In this document: one piece after another, positions 35,764 through 64,000 of the stretch
Layout of the letters: every line of letters begins with the position of its first letter
Numbering within the stretch: the first letter of the stretch is position 1
Assembly: GCA_905235605.1 (NCBI GenBank)
Contig: CAJOMF010000014.1
Location: 4,662-68,661 of the forward strand
DNA from: an uncultured bacterium
Lineage (GTDB): Bacteria; UBP6; UBA1177
Direction of reading: 5' to 3'
DNA: 64,000 nucleotides
Notes under the pieces: model-generated
The model's input: only the letters and a program-made list of their open reading frames with translations
Databases searched by the model: none
What the model was told of the DNA's origin: nothing
Translations under genes and position numbers: made by a program

Positions 35764-36783
35764 CTAGTCCAGTATTTCCCAATGACCGTTTTTGTCGGCA
35801 CCGATACGCTTTATGAGACCTTTTTCTTTCAAAGACGAAAAAATTCTTTCCGCCTGTCTCTGGCTGATGTTCAGACGAAGTGCAGCCGTTTTTGCCGATA
35901 TTTCAGGATTTTCTTTAATAAAATCAAGAATTTTAATTTCGCTCGCGCTGACATTTACACCGACATTTGCACCGACATTTGCACCGACATCTGATGTCGT
36001 TCTGTCGGCAAACCGGTGCCTTTTTATGGCATTGGCAATCATTTTCAGCATAAATTCTACAAAAACTCCCGAATCGGCATCATCGGTGCTCTGTTCGATC
36101 GCTTTGTAGTATCCTGCCTGATTTTCCCAGATCATGTTTTCAATGGGCAGGTGTGCGAAAACGGGATTCCACTCCGAGAGAAGTCTCGACTGCCAGAATC
36201 TTCCCATCCTGCCGTTGCCGTCTTCAAACGGATGGATGAACTCGAATTCGTAGTGAAAAACGCTGCTTTTGATGAGTATGTGGTCTTCAGCATTTTTCAG
36301 CCACTCGAAAAGATCGGATATGAGCCCTGAAACCATGTGTGCCGGAGGAGCGACATGCGAAATCCCGCTTCTGCCCATCACGCCGACTCCTCCGCGCCTG
36401 AAATGTCCGGGATTGTCTACTAAGCCCAAAGCCATGATCCCGTGCGCCTTGAGCAGGTCTTTAACGCTGAAAGGATCGAGATTCGGGAACTCTTCGTAAG
36501 CAAGGATCGCGTTTCTTACTTCCTGGATTTCTTTTATCGGCGCGATCACGTGTTTACCTTCGATCAGAGCTGTGACCTGCTCTTCAGAAAGTGAGTTCCC
36601 TTCGATTGCAAGAGAGCCGCGGATTGTTTTCATGCGGTTCACTTTGCGGAGCATGGGCCCGTCAGCCTGTTCGAGACGGATCGCAAAACGCTCAAGCAGA
36701 GCCGAGATTTCCGCCACCAGATTGACTGTTTCAGCCGTTATCGTAAAGGGCGGAGTGTGGATTTTTTTCTTTTTCTCGACCAT
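35764..36783 (-). CDS. fic: Fic-family protein (class II, auto-inhibited AMPylase type) with C-terminal winged HTH
   Basis: Canonical Fic motif HPFEDGNGRMGR. N-terminal inhibitory helix motif SLAIEGN (S/TxxxEG/N). C-terminal wHTH (…LRLNISQRQAERIFSSLKEKGLIKR). Confidence 0.8.
   Translation of the reverse strand: MVEKKKKIHTPPFTITAETVNLVAEISALLERFAIRLEQADGPMLRKVNRMKTIRGSLAIEGNSLSEEQVTALIEGKHVIAPIKEIQEVRNAILAYEEFPNLDPFSVKDLLKAHGIMALGLVDNPGHFRRGGVGVMGRSGISHVAPPAHMVSGLISDLFEWLKNAEDHILIKSSVFHYEFEFIHPFEDGNGRMGRFWQSRLLSEWNPVFAHLPIENMIWENQAGYYKAIEQSTDDADSGVFVEFMLKMIANAIKRHRFADRTTSDVGANVGANVGVNVSASEIKILDFIKENPEISAKTAALRLNISQRQAERIFSSLKEKGLIKRIGADKNGHWEILD
35951..35997. repeat. 12-bp tandem repeat (about 3.5 copies) inside the Fic coding region
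   Basis: acatttacaccg acatttgcaccg acatttgcaccg acatctg, encoding (VGAN)n in the Fic protein. Confidence 0.6.
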
Positions 36784-38268: not shown

Positions 38269-39627
38269 TTACAGCACTGCCGCCATATAATACGGCAGGT
38301 AAATCACTTCGTTATCACGTTTTACATCACCGTCATACAGGACATACTGCAAGCCGACTTTGTTGGAAAACTTTGTTTTGAAATTCTGGAGTGATTTCAC
38401 TGCAAACTCTCTGCCTGATTTTACCTCGACCGGAACAACTTTTTTTTCGTTTCTGATCAGAAAATCGATTTCCATCACGGGTTTGCCCTTATTGTTGTAT
38501 TCAACATAAAAGAGGATTTTATGCCCGTTGCTGCGAAGGCACTGCGCGACCGCGTTTTCCACAAACATTCCCTCGTTTATATGCAGTTTGTCAGTGAGGA
38601 TTGTCTTATAAAACCCGTTATCCATAAATGTTCCGTCGCCGAAACTGAGGTTTATAAGCAAACCGGTATCAAGCAGGTAGCACTTGAAACGCCCGTTATC
38701 CATATTGAGGGTGAGAGCAGGGCTCGGATCGGTGACATTTCTCGCAACATTTACGATCATTGCTTCAGAAAGCCACGTGAGAGGGCTGCTGTATTCGCGG
38801 TATCTGGCGTTTTTATCCACATGAGAGAGCTGAAACGAACTGCTTTTTTCGTGTTTTGAGAGCTCGGAAGGAATATTATCCAGGATATTTCCCAAATAGG
38901 TGCTGTTTTCCTCTTTTTGATTCTTGATGTCGTTTCTGTAAAGAGCCAGAATTTCTTTCTTTGCAAAATCGACTTTTTCAAAATCTTTCGTCTGAATGTA
39001 TTTTACAACGGCCTGCGGCATTCCGCCGACACACATATATTCCCTGAATTTTCTGAAAATGTCTTTGTGAAGATTCCCGAGCGGTTTAATGTTTTCATAA
39101 CTGCTTTTTATGATAGGAAAAGTGAATTCGTCGCCCGCTGCCTGGAGAAATTCTTCAAAATCAAGCGGAAACATTTCAACGGCATATTCTTCAGAAGGAA
39201 TAAGGATTTCCGAACTCTCGGTCTTCTTTTTTATGCCAGCCAGTGATCCTGTTTCGATATAGTCGTATCTTCCGTCAGCCAACAGGGTTTTCAGAGCCTG
39301 GCGCGCCAGAGGGTAAAGCTGTATTTCATCTAAAATAATGAGCGAATCCCGCTTATAAAGCTTTTTCCCGTATTGCAGCTGAATTACGTTGAAAAAGTAA
39401 TCTAAGTCCAGAAGACTGTTCACGAAAAGGTCTCGGACAGTGTCGTTAGTTGATTGGAAGTTTATAGTTATGAAAGACTTATATTCGTTTTTCCCGAGTT
39501 CTTCCGCAATGGTTGTCTTTCCGACACGGCGTGCGCCTTTCAAAAATAAAGCATATTCCGGCGCATATTCTTTCTTCCATTTGAGTAATTCTTCATAAAC
39601 CTTTCTTTTCAGTACGATTTCTGCCAT
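38269..39627 (-). CDS. AAA_14 + DUF4143 family ATPase
   Basis: Walker A GARRVGKTT. About 450 aa, an architecture typical of DUF4143 ATPases. Start MAEIVLK (ATG 39627) after AGAGG. Confidence 0.65.
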   Translation of the reverse strand: MAEIVLKRKVYEELLKWKKEYAPEYALFLKGARRVGKTTIAEELGKNEYKSFITINFQSTNDTVRDLFVNSLLDLDYFFNVIQLQYGKKLYKRDSLIILDEIQLYPLARQALKTLLADGRYDYIETGSLAGIKKKTESSEILIPSEEYAVEMFPLDFEEFLQAAGDEFTFPIIKSSYENIKPLGNLHKDIFRKFREYMCVGGMPQAVVKYIQTKDFEKVDFAKKEILALYRNDIKNQKEENSTYLGNILDNIPSELSKHEKSSSFQLSHVDKNARYREYSSPLTWLSEAMIVNVARNVTDPSPALTLNMDNGRFKCYLLDTGLLINLSFGDGTFMDNGFYKTILTDKLHINEGMFVENAVAQCLRSNGHKILFYVEYNNKGKPVMEIDFLIRNEKKVVPVEVKSGREFAVKSLQNFKTKFSNKVGLQYVLYDGDVKRDNEVIYLPYYMAAVL

Positions 39628-39642
39628 TTGAGAACCTCTTTT

Positions 39643-39728
39643 CCACAAAATCTCCAATTTAAACCATGAAGATTTTCACAAAATCTCCAAATTTGTAATT
39701 GCCAGATATCACAAAATCTCTAATTTTT
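39643..39728. repeat. Three direct repeats CACAAAATCTC(C/T)AAtTT at about 33-bp spacing in the divergent promoter region upstream of the DUF4143 ATPase
   Basis: Copies at 39643-39660, 39676-39694 and 39709-39728. The proximal copy is 16 nt from the ATG. Confidence 0.55.
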
Positions 39729-39877
39729 CAATTTTTTAATGTAGATTTGTGATCTCTGCACACATCCTGAACATTTTCTGCCGCGCGGTTTCGTGATCCA
39801 AGCGCGTTCCGATTTTTCTTGATTTAAAATGCTTCAAAAGCATAATTAGGCGTTTTGTTGATGTTTAAAGGTGTGAT

Positions 39878-58695: not shown

Positions 58696-59553
58696 TTAGT
58701 ACAACTTTTCCTTGTGTTCCAATTCGAGTTTTTTATCGTCGATGGAAGCCTTGAGGATTTCGTAGTATTTCTGGCGTGTAAATATGTTTGCTTTGTATTG
58801 TGCGTGCTGTTTGCCGTCCAGTTTGCTCTCAACTGCATGCCGTTTCAGAATCTCTTCGACAAAACGGTTCGGGATCGCGTAGTCGATAAGCAGACAGTCG
58901 ATGAGATCGACTTTGCTCCTGCCGTTCAGGAAAGCGCAGGTTTTGAGAACATGGACGATTCTTTTCCAGCGGGAGTCACTTACATAGAACTCGAAGCACT
59001 TTCTTCTGATTTCTGAAATGACACTTTTGGCTTCTTCGCTCAGTTCGACCCTGTCGATTACCGGCTGCCACTCTTTTACTTCCTTTATTGTAAGCAGTGC
59101 GGCTTTTTGTTCTTTATCGGGATGCGGGATTGTCTCGAAGCTGGGACTGTTTACGAAGTTAAAAAAATTGTCGTCATCCGCAATCGGTTTTACCTCGACA
59201 GTAATGACCCAATCTTCATTATTTTCCGCAGCTTTATAGGGATCTGCTTCCGACGAGTTTTCCATACGGAATAAAGAATCAATGCCGTATTCTGACGACC
59301 GGGGGGCAAACTGATCATGGCTGTAATAATCTTTAAACGCACTTTGGATAGAGAACTGAATAAGTTTTTTGTCGTTGTCGGATCTTCCGGAAAGAATAAT
59401 GTCTTCCGCAGCAACAGCCGAAAGCAGCGAAAGGTTGATTACTTCCTCTCTGCCTCGCAGATTACGGTTTAAAAAGGCAAGAACAGTTTCAATACGGTCA
59501 CGCATTTCCTTGCCGGAAAAAATCTTTTTTTCTCCCGAATTGTTGTCGCTCAT
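58696..59553 (-). CDS. Hypothetical protein (island edge, adjacent to tRNA-Leu)
   Basis: ATG 59553 after GAGG. No recognisable family. A partial motif-like TTTTTGACAATTTT lies at 59603-59616 upstream. Confidence 0.4.
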   Translation of the reverse strand: MSDNNSGEKKIFSGKEMRDRIETVLAFLNRNLRGREEVINLSLLSAVAAEDIILSGRSDNDKKLIQFSIQSAFKDYYSHDQFAPRSSEYGIDSLFRMENSSEADPYKAAENNEDWVITVEVKPIADDDNFFNFVNSPSFETIPHPDKEQKAALLTIKEVKEWQPVIDRVELSEEAKSVISEIRRKCFEFYVSDSRWKRIVHVLKTCAFLNGRSKVDLIDCLLIDYAIPNRFVEEILKRHAVESKLDGKQHAQYKANIFTRQKYYEILKASIDDKKLELEHKEKLY

Positions 59554-59680
59554 CTTCAACCTCGTAAAAAGTGATTAAAAAACTGCGTAATTTTAAAGAA
59601 GAAGAGATTTTTGACAATTTTTTGCGGGAAACGGTTTTTCAGCTTTTCTATTTGCTGCAAAGCTTGGATTGTTCTAAAAA

Positions 59681-59768
59681 TGGTGCCGGAGACCGGGCTC
59701 GAACCGGTACAGGAGGTTATCCCGAGGGATTTTAAGTCCCTTGCGTCTACCAATTCCGCCACTCCGGC
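59681..59768 (-). tRNA. tRNA-Leu (anticodon UAA), CCA encoded
   Basis: Minus-strand read: GCCGGAGTGGCGGAATTGGTAGACGC…AGGGACTTAAAATCCCT…GGTTCGAGCCCGGTCTCCGGCACCA. Long variable arm. Anticodon loop CTTAAAA. Confidence 0.85.
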
Positions 59769-59785
59769 GGTTATAAGTTTGAAAA

Positions 59786-59859
59786 TGGAGGCACCTTCCG
59801 GATTCGAACCGGAGATGGAGATTTTGCAGACCTCTGCCTTACCTCTTGGCTAAGGTGCC
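59786..59859 (-). tRNA. tRNA-Cys (anticodon GCA), CCA encoded
   Basis: GGCACCTTAGCCAAGAGGTAAGGCAGAGGTCTGCAAAATCTCC…GGTTCGAATCCGGAAGGTGCCTCCA. Anticodon loop CTGCAAA. Confidence 0.85.
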
Positions 59860-59897
59860 GACCAAAAAGAATTTCGATTGAAAAAGGACATAAAAAA

Positions 59898-59973
59898 ATG
59901 GAGCGGGAAACGGGATTCGGACCCGCGACGTCTACCTTGGCAAGGTAGCACTCTACCACTGAGTTATTCCCGC
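59898..59973 (-). tRNA. tRNA-Gly (anticodon GCC), CCA encoded
   Basis: GCGGGAATAACTCAGTGGTAGAGTGCTACCTTGCCAAGGTAGACGTCGCGGGTCCGAATCCCGTTTCCCGCTCCA. Anticodon loop TTGCCAA. Confidence 0.85.
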
Positions 59974-60074
59974 TCTGGCAGGCGACAAGATAGTCAGAAA
60001 CTTTTGAATGTCAAGTTTTTTTTGCAGGTTTTTGAAAAAATCTGCTTTTTCCTGCGCGCTCCCGCCTTGTATCT

Positions 60075-60170
60075 GAGAAAATTTTGCGGAAAGTGCGTTT
60101 TTTGGCGAAAAAAATTTTGCGAAAAGTGCAGTTTTGAGCAAAAAAAATTTTGCGATTCCTGCAAAGCCAT
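60075..60170. repeat. Three tandem imperfect copies of AAAATTTTGCG(G/A)AAAGTGC(A)GTTTT; a related copy at 59619-59645 and a 45-bp near-duplicate at 63074-63118
   Basis: Direct comparison: 60117-60160 ttttgcgaaaagtgcagttttgagcaaaaaaaattttgcgattc versus 63074-63118 ttttgcggaaagcgcagttttgagcaaaaaaattttgcgattc. Confidence 0.55.
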
Positions 60171-60411
60171 TAAAATCATTATTCTTTTTAGTTGTCCGGT
60201 TACAAAACTCATAAGTCGCTGGATTTATTCTGTGAAAAGTTTTCTTCGCGAATCGGAGAAAAAATTCTGCTTTACACTAAAGATTATCAGAAAGACGGCG
60301 AAGTTCAGTGCATTCCCGCTTATTTCACATGGCTTTTGTGATTTTTTTGCCAAAACAAAGAATTTTTATAAAATACTGCGGTTTAAAAATCGAGGCTCTC
60401 CGAGGTCGCAA

Positions 60412-61449
60412 ATGAGGAAAATCACGACGCTTTTTGCTCTGGCAATTTTGGTGTTTTTTATTCTGATGACCGGTTGCAGTAAGTTTCCGGAATGCAGCCC
60501 GACAAGCAAAACTCCGTGCAAAGATTCATCAACCGGTCTTATCTGGTCATCAAAATCACACGGCATAATGTATGATTCTGATGCCAAATATTATTGCAGC
60601 CACCTTCAGGAAGGCGGTTATTCCGACTGGCGTCTGCCGTTGATTGATGAACTCAGAACATTGATAGAAAATTGCCGGAAAACGGAAACTGGCGGGGAAT
60701 GCAGAGCTTCCGAGGAGTGTCGCGATAGCTGTTGCGAAAATGATGCCTGTGCGGGATGTCCTTTCAATTCAAGCGGTTATTACAGCAAGTTAGGTGACAG
60801 CGAAACACTTTGGTCTTATTCCTGGCCTACTGACGGTGGGGCAGATTGCAGCTGGTCTGTAAATTTCAGCGAAGGCGCGGTTCACATTGACAACGAATAC
60901 CTTTACACCCGCTGTGTAAGGGGTGCTTCCCAAGATGATGAAGAAGGAGACGGGGAAGATGAAGAGGATGAAGAAGACGAGGAAGAAGAGGAAGAAGAAA
61001 ACGGCAACCGTTTAAACGGTGCGTGTTTCAAAGTTGACGGCAGAGAGTGGTCGAATCTTTCTTCCATAAAATTTATCTGGTCTGATGCAGTGAAGTACTG
61101 CGACAAGTTGAATCAATGCGGACATTCCGACTGGCATCTGCCCACAATCAGCGAGCTCCGTACTTTGATTCAAAACAATCCGGGAACAGAATCCGGCGGA
61201 ACATGCGGTGTTACCGACACTTGTCTTAGTGATGAGGATTGTTATGATTTAGACAATTGCTGGTCTGTGGGGCTTTATGGTGACGGCCCATACAGCAAAC
61301 TCGGTGACGAGGAGTGGTTCTGGTCTTCTTCTGATTTGTCCGATGAGCCGGACTATGCGTGGGGCGTTGATTTTTACGACGGCACTATCAGTGAGTATGA
61401 GAAAAATGTTTACGATTCCGAGGGATGCAATGTCCGTTGCGTGAGGTGA
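60412..61449 (+). CDS. Lipoprotein with two DUF1566 / Fib_succ_major domains and an acidic (DEEDEEEEE) linker
   Basis: Start MRKITTLF (ATG 60412). The ORF track's upstream extension overlaps the tRNAs and is spurious. Lipobox LMTGCS. YCSHLQEGGYSDWRLPLIDELRTL and YCDKLNQCGHSDWHLPTISELRTL. Confidence 0.7.
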   Translation: MRKITTLFALAILVFFILMTGCSKFPECSPTSKTPCKDSSTGLIWSSKSHGIMYDSDAKYYCSHLQEGGYSDWRLPLIDELRTLIENCRKTETGGECRASEECRDSCCENDACAGCPFNSSGYYSKLGDSETLWSYSWPTDGGADCSWSVNFSEGAVHIDNEYLYTRCVRGASQDDEEGDGEDEEDEEDEEEEEEENGNRLNGACFKVDGREWSNLSSIKFIWSDAVKYCDKLNQCGHSDWHLPTISELRTLIQNNPGTESGGTCGVTDTCLSDEDCYDLDNCWSVGLYGDGPYSKLGDEEWFWSSSDLSDEPDYAWGVDFYDGTISEYEKNVYDSEGCNVRCVR

Positions 61450-61565
61450 CTACTTTTTGCAGGCTTCGTAGATACAGTTTTTCGATTTATATCTTGGCAA
61501 ACATTTTTCGTAAAGTACGGTTTTTCTGTTTGTGAAAGCAGTCTTGCAGACAATCAAAAAAGCGC

Positions 61566-62918
61566 CTACTTTTTAGACGCGATTTTTGTCTCAAAAATCC
61601 ATTTTTTCAGCAAAAAGGCACAGAAATGAGGGAAGGTGTAGAATTTTCCGTTGAATCCGATGTTTCCGCCGCAGAATTTTATGCCGTATTTTATGTCGTG
61701 ATACTTTTCTTTTTCAATGAGTTTGTTGAGCGAAGCGGTCGCGCTGTCCTGCGCTTTGACTTCGACCGGAACAAGGGAATCGGCATCGCGCACGAAGAAA
61801 TCCATCTCGACAGTCGATTTTTCGTCTTTGTAGTAAAAAAGTTCGTATCCCTGCTTTACGAGCATGTCGCCGATGACATTTTCATAAACTGCACCTTTAT
61901 AGATATTGAAATTTTTGTTCCGGCGCAGATCCTCCTGGGCTTCCTCGTCAAGAGATGCGATCAAAAGCCCCGTGTCACGGAAATAAATTTTGAAATCGTT
62001 TGCCTTATAGTTGCCTTTCAGCGGCAGTTCCGGTGTTTCAAGACAGTGGCAGACATTGATTATTCCGGCATCTCGGAGCCATTCGACCGTTCCGGCATAC
62101 TCGCGGTTTCTTGCTCCCGTTGCGATTTTCGACACCTGATATTTTTTGTTCTCTTTTGCTAGAAAAACAGATATGTTGTCGTAAACATTGGTGATTTTTC
62201 CTTTGTCAAGACCTGCTGCATATTTTGTTATATCCTCTTTGTAGGCGGCAAGTATCTGCCTTTGCGCATCTAAAGTTCCCGAAAAGTTTTTCTGCTCCGC
62301 AAACATCCTGACAACCGCCGGCATACCTCCGAGAGTCATATATTCAGTAAAGTTTTCCTGCCACACCGCGTATTCGTTCTGATTGAAAGGCTCAATATTT
62401 TTCATGTGTTGGAAAATCGTTGCAATCTGATCTTTTCCGAAGCCTTTCGCCCAAAGAAATTCCTCGAAATCGAGAGAATGCATCTCTAAATCCTTTTTGT
62501 AGCCGACACTGACGGAAGTCACTTCATTGTAGTTTATTCCGAGCATTGATCCCGAGCAGATCACGTCATAACGCCCGTCGATCTTAAAGAATTTCAGACA
62601 TGTCGCACAGTCTGGGCAGGCCTGCATCTCGTCGAAAAAAATCAAAGTCTCTTTCGGAACGAATTTGAAAGAAGGGTTAATGAAGCTTATCTCCTTTATG
62701 ACCGAATCGGGCGAATAGCCGCCCGCAAAAATATTTTTGTACTTCGGCTCCTCGATAAAATTTATCTCGACAAAGTATTTATAAGTTTCGGCAAAACGTC
62801 TGATCGAGAAAGTTTTTCCTACCTGACGCGCTCCCTTTACAATAAGCGGAAGCCTTTCCGGATTCTTTTTCCACTCAAGAAGAAAATCATCAATTTTTCT
62901 ATGAAGTATTTCGGGCAT
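61566..62918 (-). CDS. AAA_14 + DUF4143 family ATPase (second copy)
   Basis: Walker A GARQVGKTF. Same architecture and length class as the 38269-39627 gene. Confidence 0.65.
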   Translation of the reverse strand: MPEILHRKIDDFLLEWKKNPERLPLIVKGARQVGKTFSIRRFAETYKYFVEINFIEEPKYKNIFAGGYSPDSVIKEISFINPSFKFVPKETLIFFDEMQACPDCATCLKFFKIDGRYDVICSGSMLGINYNEVTSVSVGYKKDLEMHSLDFEEFLWAKGFGKDQIATIFQHMKNIEPFNQNEYAVWQENFTEYMTLGGMPAVVRMFAEQKNFSGTLDAQRQILAAYKEDITKYAAGLDKGKITNVYDNISVFLAKENKKYQVSKIATGARNREYAGTVEWLRDAGIINVCHCLETPELPLKGNYKANDFKIYFRDTGLLIASLDEEAQEDLRRNKNFNIYKGAVYENVIGDMLVKQGYELFYYKDEKSTVEMDFFVRDADSLVPVEVKAQDSATASLNKLIEKEKYHDIKYGIKFCGGNIGFNGKFYTFPHFCAFLLKKWIFETKIASKK

Positions 62919-62930
62919 TTATGCAACTCC

Positions 62931-63054
62931 ATCACAAAATTCCGGTGTATTTTGCCACAATTTTTCACAAAATTCCAGTTGTTTTTTGCTGTTTTTTCAC
63001 AAAATTCCGGATGTTTCAGTGATATTTTTCACAAAAATCTGATTTTAGGACTGT
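62931..63054. repeat. Four direct repeats TCACAAAATTCC(G/A)G at about 33-bp spacing upstream of the second DUF4143 ATPase
   Basis: Copies at 62931, 62963, 62997 and 63038. The proximal copy is about 15 nt from the ATG, mirroring the 39643-39728 arrangement. Confidence 0.55.
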
Positions 63055-63070
63055 AAAAAAGGACTAACAG

Positions 63071-63120
63071 ACAAACATTTTGCGGAAAGCGCAGTTTTGA
63101 GCAAAAAAATTTTGCGATTC
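63071..63120. repeat. Distal copy of the TTTTGCGGAAAGCGCAGTTTTGAGCAAAAAAATTTTGCGATTC element (direct repeat of 60117-60160)
   Basis: Near-identical 45-mer in the same orientation. Brackets the 60.4-62.9 kb two-gene segment. Confidence 0.5.
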
Positions 63121-63132
63121 TAAAAGGATTTT

Positions 63133-63200
63133 CTTGACACGGCATTCTTTATGATTAGATAAATGACAAGATATTTGACAAGATAAATGACAAGATAAAT
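63133..63200 (+). promoter_or_regulatory. Promoter TTGACA-N16-TAGATA followed by 3.6 tandem copies of a 12-bp repeat GATA(A/T)(A/T)TGACAA in the 5' leader
   Basis: TTGACA 63133-63138. TAGATA 63155-63160. Repeats at 63157-63200. RBS AAGAGGT. ATG 63220. Confidence 0.45.
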
Positions 63201-63219
63201 TAAAAGAGGTCTTGAAAGT

Positions 63220-64000
63220 ATGAGACGCAGGGAATCAGAAACTCTTGAATTCAAAAAAACAACAGCCCAGTTGAAGGAGGCAGTTATTTCTATTTGTGCA
63301 ATGCTGAACAAACACAATGTCGGTATTGTCTATTTCGGAATCAAAGACGATGGTTCCGTGTTTGGCCAGGATATAGGCAGAAAAACACTTTCCGACATAT
63401 CGCATGAATTGAGAAATAACCTGAAACCTACTCCGGGCATTTCGATAACATCAGAAACTATAGATGAAAAAAATGTTATTAAAGTCTTTGCTACAGGTGA
63501 CGACACGCCGTATTCCGCCTACGGACGCTACTACATAAGGATACATGATGTCGATGTTTTCATGGATTCGGGACTTTTGTGGAAATATTTCGAATCGAAA
63601 GAAAAAACCTATTCCAAGTGGGAGGAAAAAACGACATCTTTCAATATTGATCATGTAAACGAAGATCTTTTGATTCACTATATAAGAAGTGCGAATGATA
63701 CCGGCAGACTAAACTATATTTACAGGAATCCGGAAGAGGCTTTGAGAAAATTGAATCTTATAGATGAAGATGGGTTTCTGAATAATGCCGGATATTTTTT
63801 GTTCGGGAACGACGGTCCTGTGCTCCTGAAGGAAGTGATTTATCCGACAGACGAACGGAACTCTTTTACCGATTTGAAGCAATTCAGGGGAAATATTATC
63901 GAGTGCATCGGCGAAGGGTTGAAATATATACAGAACAACATTCACTATCTTTCCGAGATTGTCGGAACAAGGCGCGTGGAAACGCCCGAAATTCCGTTGG
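63220..64000 (+). CDS. AlbA_2 (Schlafen-like) DNA-binding-domain protein, partial (continues past window end)
   Basis: N-terminal ESETLEFKKTT…GIVYFGIKDDGSVFG matches the AlbA_2 putative DNA-binding domain found in ATP-dependent regulator-like proteins. The frame stays open to 64000. Track ORFs 63451-63678 and 63709-63945 are antisense to it. Confidence 0.55.
   Translation, partial: MRRRESETLEFKKTTAQLKEAVISICAMLNKHNVGIVYFGIKDDGSVFGQDIGRKTLSDISHELRNNLKPTPGISITSETIDEKNVIKVFATGDDTPYSAYGRYYIRIHDVDVFMDSGLLWKYFESKEKTYSKWEEKTTSFNIDHVNEDLLIHYIRSANDTGRLNYIYRNPEEALRKLNLIDEDGFLNNAGYFLFGNDGPVLLKEVIYPTDERNSFTDLKQFRGNIIECIGEGLKYIQNNIHYLSEIVGTRRVETPEIPL

Follow-up and report, generated by a model that had tools for sequence, protein, structure and literature searches.

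The window analysed, a 64-kb stretch of DNA, carries two related genes on its minus strand, ATPase1 (38269..39627, 452 aa) and ATPase2 (61566..62918, 450 aa), which lie 23 kb apart and encode proteins with 32% identity. Both products were assigned by Pfam and PADLOC to the defence candidate PDC-S01 (AAA_14 + DUF4143; COG1373). The two Pfam domains were found above the gathering threshold and in N-to-C order, with 75.5 (AAA_14) and 106.4 bits (DUF4143) for ATPase2 and 80.4 and 75.9 bits for ATPase1, for which a weak NERD match was obtained as well. The PADLOC model PDLC04786 matched the proteins end to end (E 2.7e-150 over residues 5-440 of ATPase2; E 4.6e-102 over residues 6-451 of ATPase1). 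The ATPase plus PD-(D/E)XK architecture of PDC-S01 is shared by the window proteins: ATPase2 contains the Walker A motif GARQVGKT, a Walker B DE (D96-E97) and a C-terminal PD-(D/E)XK-type motif, D373...E386-V-K388, and Walker A, Walker B and the D...ExK motif are invariant over two subfamilies. For both proteins an AAA+, Orc1/Cdc6-like fold was predicted, which also resembles STAND proteins (NLR, Avs). PDC-S01 is reported to rank fourth in frequency among the defence candidates of prokaryotes and to be the commonest single locus in rumen genomes (PMC12988326, PMC13356809), and its anti-phage validation is still pending (PMC12988326). In the literature it figures as a single ORF of unexplained mechanism, and in what was found on DUF4143, COG1373, PDC-S01 and the PADLOC embedding, with incomplete coverage, no upstream repeats are described.

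Upstream of ATPase2, four direct repeats on the minus strand (62928..63048) were located by box and periodicity scans; a strain with a 98%-identical ATPase2 (L154) has an array identical to that of the window. Read on the plus strand, the boxes are TCACAAAATTCCGG at 62932-62945 and 62997-63010, both with 0 mismatches, a copy with 1 mismatch at 62965-62978 and a degenerate distal copy, TCACAAAAATCTGA, at 63029-63042 (3 mismatches). On the sense (minus) strand of the gene the box reads CCGGAATTTTGTGA, with (C)CGGAATTTTGTGA as its flank form. The start-to-start distances are 33, 32 and 32 bp, a period of 32 was returned by TRF, and the proximal box directly abuts the GGAG ribosome-binding site. 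The four boxes that the initial annotation had claimed for this gene are real. Back to back with this array stand two units of the GCGRAAAG(C/T)GCA type on the plus strand (63073..63120), with ~85% identity by eye to 60110-60165.

ATPase1 is preceded by three direct repeats (39643..39722, minus strand), which are kept in its orthologues (L081-L103). These boxes lie at 39644-39655, 39677-39688 and 39710-39721 in plus-strand coordinates, spaced by 33/33 bp, and read CACAAAATCTCC/T on the plus strand and GGAGATTTTGTG(A/G) on the sense strand. The start of ATPase1 is the ATG at 39627, as in the orthologues, and not the TTG at 39657. A count of four boxes at this locus is corrected to three direct repeats; the supposed fourth is an inverted partial copy, GATTTGTGAT, on the plus strand at 39744..39753, distal to the array. 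This copy is absent from the orthologues and probably non-functional. The claim that both arrays have the same spacing was borne out, and the claim of the same position relative to the ATG nearly so, the T of the proximal TGTG lying 18 nt before the A of the ATG in ATPase2 and 20 nt before it in ATPase1.

To judge chance similarity of the core, the proposed shuffled-sequence test was run on the window, and the excess lay above all shuffles: CACAAAATNNCC with ≤1 mismatch gave 16 matches against 6.09 +/- 2.30 expected, and 16 was reached in 0 of 100 shuffles. A loose 14-mer with ≤3 mismatches showed no window-wide enrichment (17 vs 11.8 expected), so that the signal consists of clustering and phasing. 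When the 64 kb were scanned without a motif, for any 10-mer (≤1 mismatch) present three times at 32/33 bp, only 39643, 60076 and 62931 were returned, and none in 5 shuffles.

The site at 60076 belongs to a third array on the plus strand (60076..60165), which is made up of three 33-bp units AAAATTTTGCG(G/A)AAAGTGC(G/A)... and adjoins a tRNA-Gly gene. Its box is of the GAAAGTGC type known from other subfamilies (compared with L131-L138). About 30 bp downstream and in the same orientation lies the remnant of a DUF4143 ATPase gene, of which only the last ~49 codons are left (60195..60341, plus strand). It was detected by tblastn (42% over 43 aa, E 1e-4) and by phmmer (E ~1e-8 against ATPase1-type C-termini); when distant family members were searched against 59900-61000 by tblastn, the remnant was found only by ATPase1-type proteins. 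At this array the gene appears to have been deleted while the array stayed. With the three sites of the motif-free scan and this remnant, every array in the window adjoins a DUF4143 gene or its remnant.

The surroundings of these arrays differ between strains. The array on the tRNA side has two units in the related strain vs three in the window. The upstream neighbour of ATPase2 is a small HTH_24 gene in L154 and an AlbA_2 gene in the window, and synteny between the two ends inside a box at ~63090 (unit 63073-63120; L154 3820-3850). The change in unit number and the break inside a box indicate that the arrays also act as recombination-prone repeats. Three tRNA genes are located on the minus strand at 59681-59973, namely Leu-taa, Cys-gca and Gly-gcc (Gly at 59899-59973). 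Past this cluster follow the remnant, an Lcl_C lipoprotein gene and ATPase2, a gene content unlike that of the related strain. The Lcl_C-domain lipoprotein (60412-61449) contains an AAG/GAA-rich repeat (60932-61004), which encodes a long acidic (E/D) linker between its halves. A Schlafen/AlbA_2-domain gene that extends past the end of the window has its ATG at 63220 and, ahead of it, a promoter-like pair, TTGACA (63135)/TAGATA. The interval between this pair and the ATG contains a 12-bp unit, TGACAAGATAAA, in four tandem copies (63157-63207), which may be an operator-like array as well, belonging to a different multi-copy gene family. A further 12-bp tandem repeat, GACATTTGCACC (35950-35990; 3.4 copies, 96% matches), is coding and lies in the ORF 35764-36783 on the minus strand.

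For the comparison with relatives, one genome per species was scanned, which yielded 80 loci (L001-L080) with proteins 59-73% identical to ATPase2. The loci are labelled Treponema/Spirochaetia, Fibrobacter, Bacteroidales, Clostridia, Bacilli and Negativicutes, many of them being MAG or metagenome contigs with possibly inexact taxonomy; the range of these labels indicates clear horizontal spread. In nearly all of these loci the start codon is closely preceded, on the sense strand, by 2-5 direct copies of GGAAWWWTGTGA(W). Across 79 ATPase2 orthologues, box density was 12.2/kb on the sense strand of the upstream 260 nt and ~0.5/kb elsewhere or antisense, and this ~25-fold enrichment was found only upstream of DUF4143 family genes. 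The box-to-box spacing was 32 bp in 99 and 33 bp in 49 cases (148 of 172), and several of the other spacings were multiples (65-66, 96 bp).

Metagenome relatives of ATPase1 showed the same layout, with a box that changes with the protein subfamily. Ordered by identity, the box is GGAGATTTTGTGA at 80-95%, GCGATTTCGTGA and GAGATTTTGTGA at ~74%, AAGATTTTGTGA at ~72%, GTCGCAAACGTGC at 56% and CTTGAAAAAGTGC at 31%. The ATPase2 and ATPase1 sets together comprise 137 relatives, from Treponema, Fibrobacter, Bacteroidales, Clostridia and Bacilli MAGs and from unassigned metagenome contigs. At least three NGTG anchors chained at 32/33 bp were present in 121 of the 137 upstream regions (~90%), and in 4 of 1102 control segments (1 of the 537 in-gene segments and 3 of the 565 from other flanks). 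A CRISPR array was considered and rejected, as the conserved part takes up 12-14 bp of 32-33, the units number 2-5 and their distance to the ATPase ATG is fixed.

More distant members of the family were collected from plasmids and viral contigs; the plasmid collection holds no archaeal examples, so that Archaea lie outside the sample. Plasmid homologues 28-33% identical to ATPase2 from Glaesserella, Vibrio, Acinetobacter and Segatella have 32/33-bp arrays, with the boxes CCTTTGAAAAAGTGT in Glaesserella, TGCGCATAAAAATGTA in Vibrio and Acinetobacter and GTCCCTCATAAAAGTGT in Segatella. Upstream of a Bacteroides plasmid homologue only two boxes were found, 66 bp apart, and the clearest two copies at a Fusobacterium homologue were 77 bp apart, with no 32/33-bp phasing seen. 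The family member adjoins a DNA methyltransferase gene at the Glaesserella plasmid locus and nucleotidyltransferase and DUF262 genes at the Segatella plasmid locus (L149, L153), neighbours that fit a defence-island setting.

A set of 57 viral-contig relatives was 28-53% identical to the Glaesserella query (alignment A4). Motif-free autocorrelation of these loci, counted as matching 7-mers per locus, peaked sharply at lag 33 (14.4) and lag 66 (6.5), with 3.95 at lag 32, against <1.6 at every other lag and <0.8 in in-gene controls. Chains of 9-mers at lag 32-34 had at least two copies in 43 of 56 loci and at least three in 25 of 56 (controls: 11 of 168 and 0 of 168), which leaves 13 of 56 distant loci without an array by this criterion. 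A few subfamilies depart from the direct-repeat layout; in loci L179-L185, for example, also from viral contigs, the box ATAAATGTGTA occurs ~80 nt upstream of the ATG as palindromes and not as direct repeats; two near-identical ~38-bp palindromes, (C)CTATCATAAATGTGTAACGTCTACACATTTATGATAGG, are present there, which suggests a different oligomeric binding mode.

The extent of DNA similarity between unrelated contexts was also informative. It begins inside the array (~-50 to -137) and, in most pairs, ends no more than ~20 nt from the stop codon. From these limits, the conserved and transferred unit is array plus ORF, ~1.5 kb in length. Since DNA homology spans nothing else, the ATPase is the sole gene consistently linked to the array, and the compact unit has evidently been transferred across phyla with no linked recombinase.

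In 205 aligned units of the ATPase2 group, information was confined to the positions G-7 G-6 A-5 A-4 W W W T G T G A W A and to an A-rich patch ~17-19 nt downstream of TGTG, while the remainder of the 32-33-bp unit varies freely. The consensus of this group, GGA-A-WWW-TGTGA-W, corresponds to one box of 12-14 bp per unit. As 32-33 bp equal three helical turns, all boxes of an array face one side of the DNA.

The initial annotation had proposed an operator shared by the two paralogues, with cross-binding of each ATPase as a test, and had called for a comparison of the upstream regions. In this comparison the TGTG core and the phasing proved to be common, but the flanks (GGAGATTTTGTG vs CGGAATTTTGTGA) differ at -8, -6 and -5. 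Each flank type is kept among the orthologues of one paralogue, and a third box type, GCGRAAAGTGC, coexists in the window. A common operator with cross-binding, the weakest part of the initial proposal, is thus unlikely, and the pattern fits insulation between the paralogues better than sharing. The box sequence follows the protein subfamily and not the host; identity at non-core positions is 0.69 among the boxes of one array vs 0.48 between arrays.

One residue may be tied to box type. In the ATPase1 group, CGTG boxes occur in three separate lineages (L086/L088; L102/L104; L106/L107/L112), all with Thr at the variable position of FxL[S/T]H. Ser takes its place in the nearest TGTG relatives of these lineages (88%, 81% and 84% identical), and Ala in the AGTG group. 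This position is residue 268 of ATPase1 and S263 of ATPase2, six residues before the invariant ARxREY. The covariation is the best of ~480 columns, with the multiple testing which that implies, and in the ATPase2 group it is not seen, both residues occurring with TGTG. A tie between this residue and box type in the ATPase1 group is therefore suggestive only.

The position of the arrays relative to promoters was read from the orthologues, since a simple sigma-70 scan of both window upstream regions found no promoter on the gene strand. In loci labelled Clostridia or Bacilli, box core and -10 element form one continuous sequence, TGTGA|TATAAT, so that the TG of the box is at the same time the TG of an extended -10. 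Over all orthologue loci of any taxon, a -10-like hexamer exactly 5 nt after the T of the box TGTG was counted in 35 cases, in the bulk of which the box concerned is the first or second from the gene. In loci labelled Bacteroidales, the Bacteroidetes-type -7 motif TAnnTTTG follows a box; a distance of 12-14 nt from the T of TGTG was found in 34 cases over all loci. The phased array is thus wired into two promoter dialects, in the loci compared always overlapping or abutting the core promoter, and such a position over core promoter elements is the one expected of an operator. The Clostridia/Bacilli promoter under the box is often near consensus (TTGAAA-N18-TGnTATAAT, e.g. L037), which fits repression better than activation.

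Two explanations that dispense with a DNA-binding protein were weighed against this geometry. The units might be duplicated promoter or UP-like modules, or phased A-tracts whose curvature boosts transcription, and indeed every unit carries its own TAnnTTTG in some Bacteroidales loci (e.g. L057, L070) and the A-rich patch is in phase. Most loci, however, have the promoter motif in one unit only, the conserved part is the GGA..TGTGA box, and the box variants track the protein subfamily instead of the promoter dialect of the host, all of which makes a protein-independent element quite improbable. Alternatively, the repeats could act in RNA, as a structured 5' leader or a repeated RNA motif. At both window genes and at some Bacteroidales loci a further box is situated downstream of the promoter motif and ahead of the start codon, and this proximal box would be transcribed. 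Most boxes, though, are upstream of or within the core promoter, and the repeats are direct, with no complementary partners. The Rfam scan of 59500-64000 (E up to 1) returned the three tRNAs and nothing else, and the array RNA folded ordinarily (z = -0.63). On account of the missing Rfam match and the ordinary folding an RNA element was rejected, and its probability is taken to be negligible.

The array is most likely the site at which the ATPase would bind its own promoter. This assignment of the binder relies on the exclusive linkage of array and gene, on the tracking of protein subfamily by the box and on the Orc1/Cdc6-like fold. The presumed DNA-binding part of the protein is less clearly delimited. 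AlphaFold models of the full protein, built on a 37-sequence alignment, were usable for the AAA+ and nuclease parts only; residues 248-321, the stretch in which analogy would place a winged helix, had a pLDDT <50, and the region 205-340 modelled alone (74 sequences) reached a pLDDT of only 45. A Pfam scan of the central region gave DUF4143 only, with no HTH or winged-helix family; a DNA-binding domain in the ATPase is therefore putative. No useful relative was returned by PDB sequence searches with a single sequence and with a profile, and a domain search of both proteins gave no Cdc6 or DnaA family match.

As this domain is only putative, another protein might bind the boxes, either a host global regulator, for example of the CRP/FNR type, or a small regulator encoded elsewhere; the TGTGA core resembles a CRP half-site. 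Against such a binder, the boxes are direct repeats at 33 bp and not palindromes, they are conserved over at least six taxonomic groups that have different regulators, and the 64-kb window combines three box types, every one of which goes with a particular paralogue. Moreover, no other gene is conserved beside the array, and the enrichment of boxes is restricted to the upstream regions of the DUF4143 family. A separate regulator is accordingly regarded as improbable, and a CRP-type site was rejected because of the direct-repeat, cross-phylum and paralogue-specific character of the boxes.

Our preferred reading, to which we assign a probability of roughly 60%, is that the boxes make up a cognate, iteron-like operator or assembly platform, phased and confined to the DUF4143/PDC-S01 ATPase-nuclease family, which would give autorepression. 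Of the family-specific autoregulatory operator put forward in the initial annotation, the family specificity and promoter-proximal location of the cis element are supported (~90% of the 137 relatives and most of the 57), while its sharing by paralogues is not. Under autorepression, one ATPase protomer would occupy each box, probably via the stretch that joins AAA+ module and nuclease domain, for which the models are poor, and the head-to-tail order of the boxes would let the Orc1/Cdc6-like AAA+ domains touch one another. The resulting cooperative nucleoprotein complex could cover the -10 region or block the first transcribed bases. Expression of a potentially toxic nuclease would in this manner be held low, in proportion to the free protein. 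With its own box variant for each paralogue, several copies are proposed to coexist in one genome without cross-talk.

An array with a role mainly beyond transcription is considered unlikely. It could be a nucleation or anchoring platform for ATP-dependent assembly, from which infection-triggered release would couple derepression to nuclease activation, or a recombination site through which the 1.5-kb cassette of array and ORF is gained, lost or exchanged. Consistent with one or the other, the transferred unit is exactly array plus ORF in unrelated phyla, unit number differs between strains, a synteny breakpoint falls inside a box, and an orphan array with a deleted gene adjoins a tRNA gene; the conserved D...ExK motif and the Orc1/Cdc6- and STAND-like fold point the same way. 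On the other hand, the unit is without a conserved 3' element, flanking repeats or a linked recombinase, ordinary homologous recombination would be expected to break in tandem repeats, and the fixed geometry with the -10 and -7 elements points to transcription control. A tentative and rather unlikely extension of autorepression would combine several of these features: the Orc1/Cdc6-like ATPase-nuclease may polymerise head to tail on the 33-bp-phased array, a hallmark of the family, which would be both autorepressor site and resting platform of an abundant, putative immune sensor. A phage cue or DNA damage would then release the protein, which would lift repression and set the nuclease free at the same time, and array and ORF would also be the smallest unit able to pass from phylum to phylum.

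Operators that consist of phased direct repeats and are bound by the product of the adjacent gene are known from DnaA boxes at dnaA, ORB elements at orc1/cdc6, iterons and MalT boxes. Archaeal Orc1/Cdc6 initiators have origin recognition boxes beside their own gene, and DnaA boxes are present in the dnaA promoter. The present loci show no sign of an origin, the gene being multi-copy per genome and horizontally mobile, and differ further in the nuclease domain of the protein and the strict spacing of 32-33 bp. The iterons of plasmids such as pSC101, P1 and RK2 serve Rep autorepression; they are usually 17-22 bp long at ~22-bp spacing (two turns) and lie in a replication origin, and their binders are Rep proteins that do not belong to the AAA+ class. 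Like iterons, the boxes are head-to-tail repeats phased by whole turns over the promoter of their presumed binder's gene, but they are 12-14 bp long at three turns, on chromosomal-scale contigs and with no replication functions of a replicon seen; relatives were found in long contigs of this scale, some >1 Mb. Replication iterons were rejected, there being no Rep gene and three arrays in one 64-kb segment with tRNA and housekeeping-type genes. MalT is a STAND activator that binds direct-repeat boxes and has a LuxR-type HTH and a sensor domain, whereas the present proteins have no recognisable HTH or sensor and contain a nuclease domain, and their promoter geometry favours repression.

The array is a first concrete handle on what the PDC-S01 protein recognises and how it is controlled. 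The prediction that follows is that an Orc1/Cdc6-like ATPase with a fused nuclease binds DNA cooperatively and with sequence specificity, and the natural pairs of protein and box variants could be used for decoding its specificity. In defence assays, constructs with and without the native upstream ~150 bp would be expected to behave differently. The compact 1.5-kb unit has moved among Spirochaetes, Fibrobacteres, Bacteroidetes and Firmicutes, and if the polymerisation and immune-sensor reading were true, one of the commonest candidate defence genes of prokaryotes would follow a new regulatory logic.
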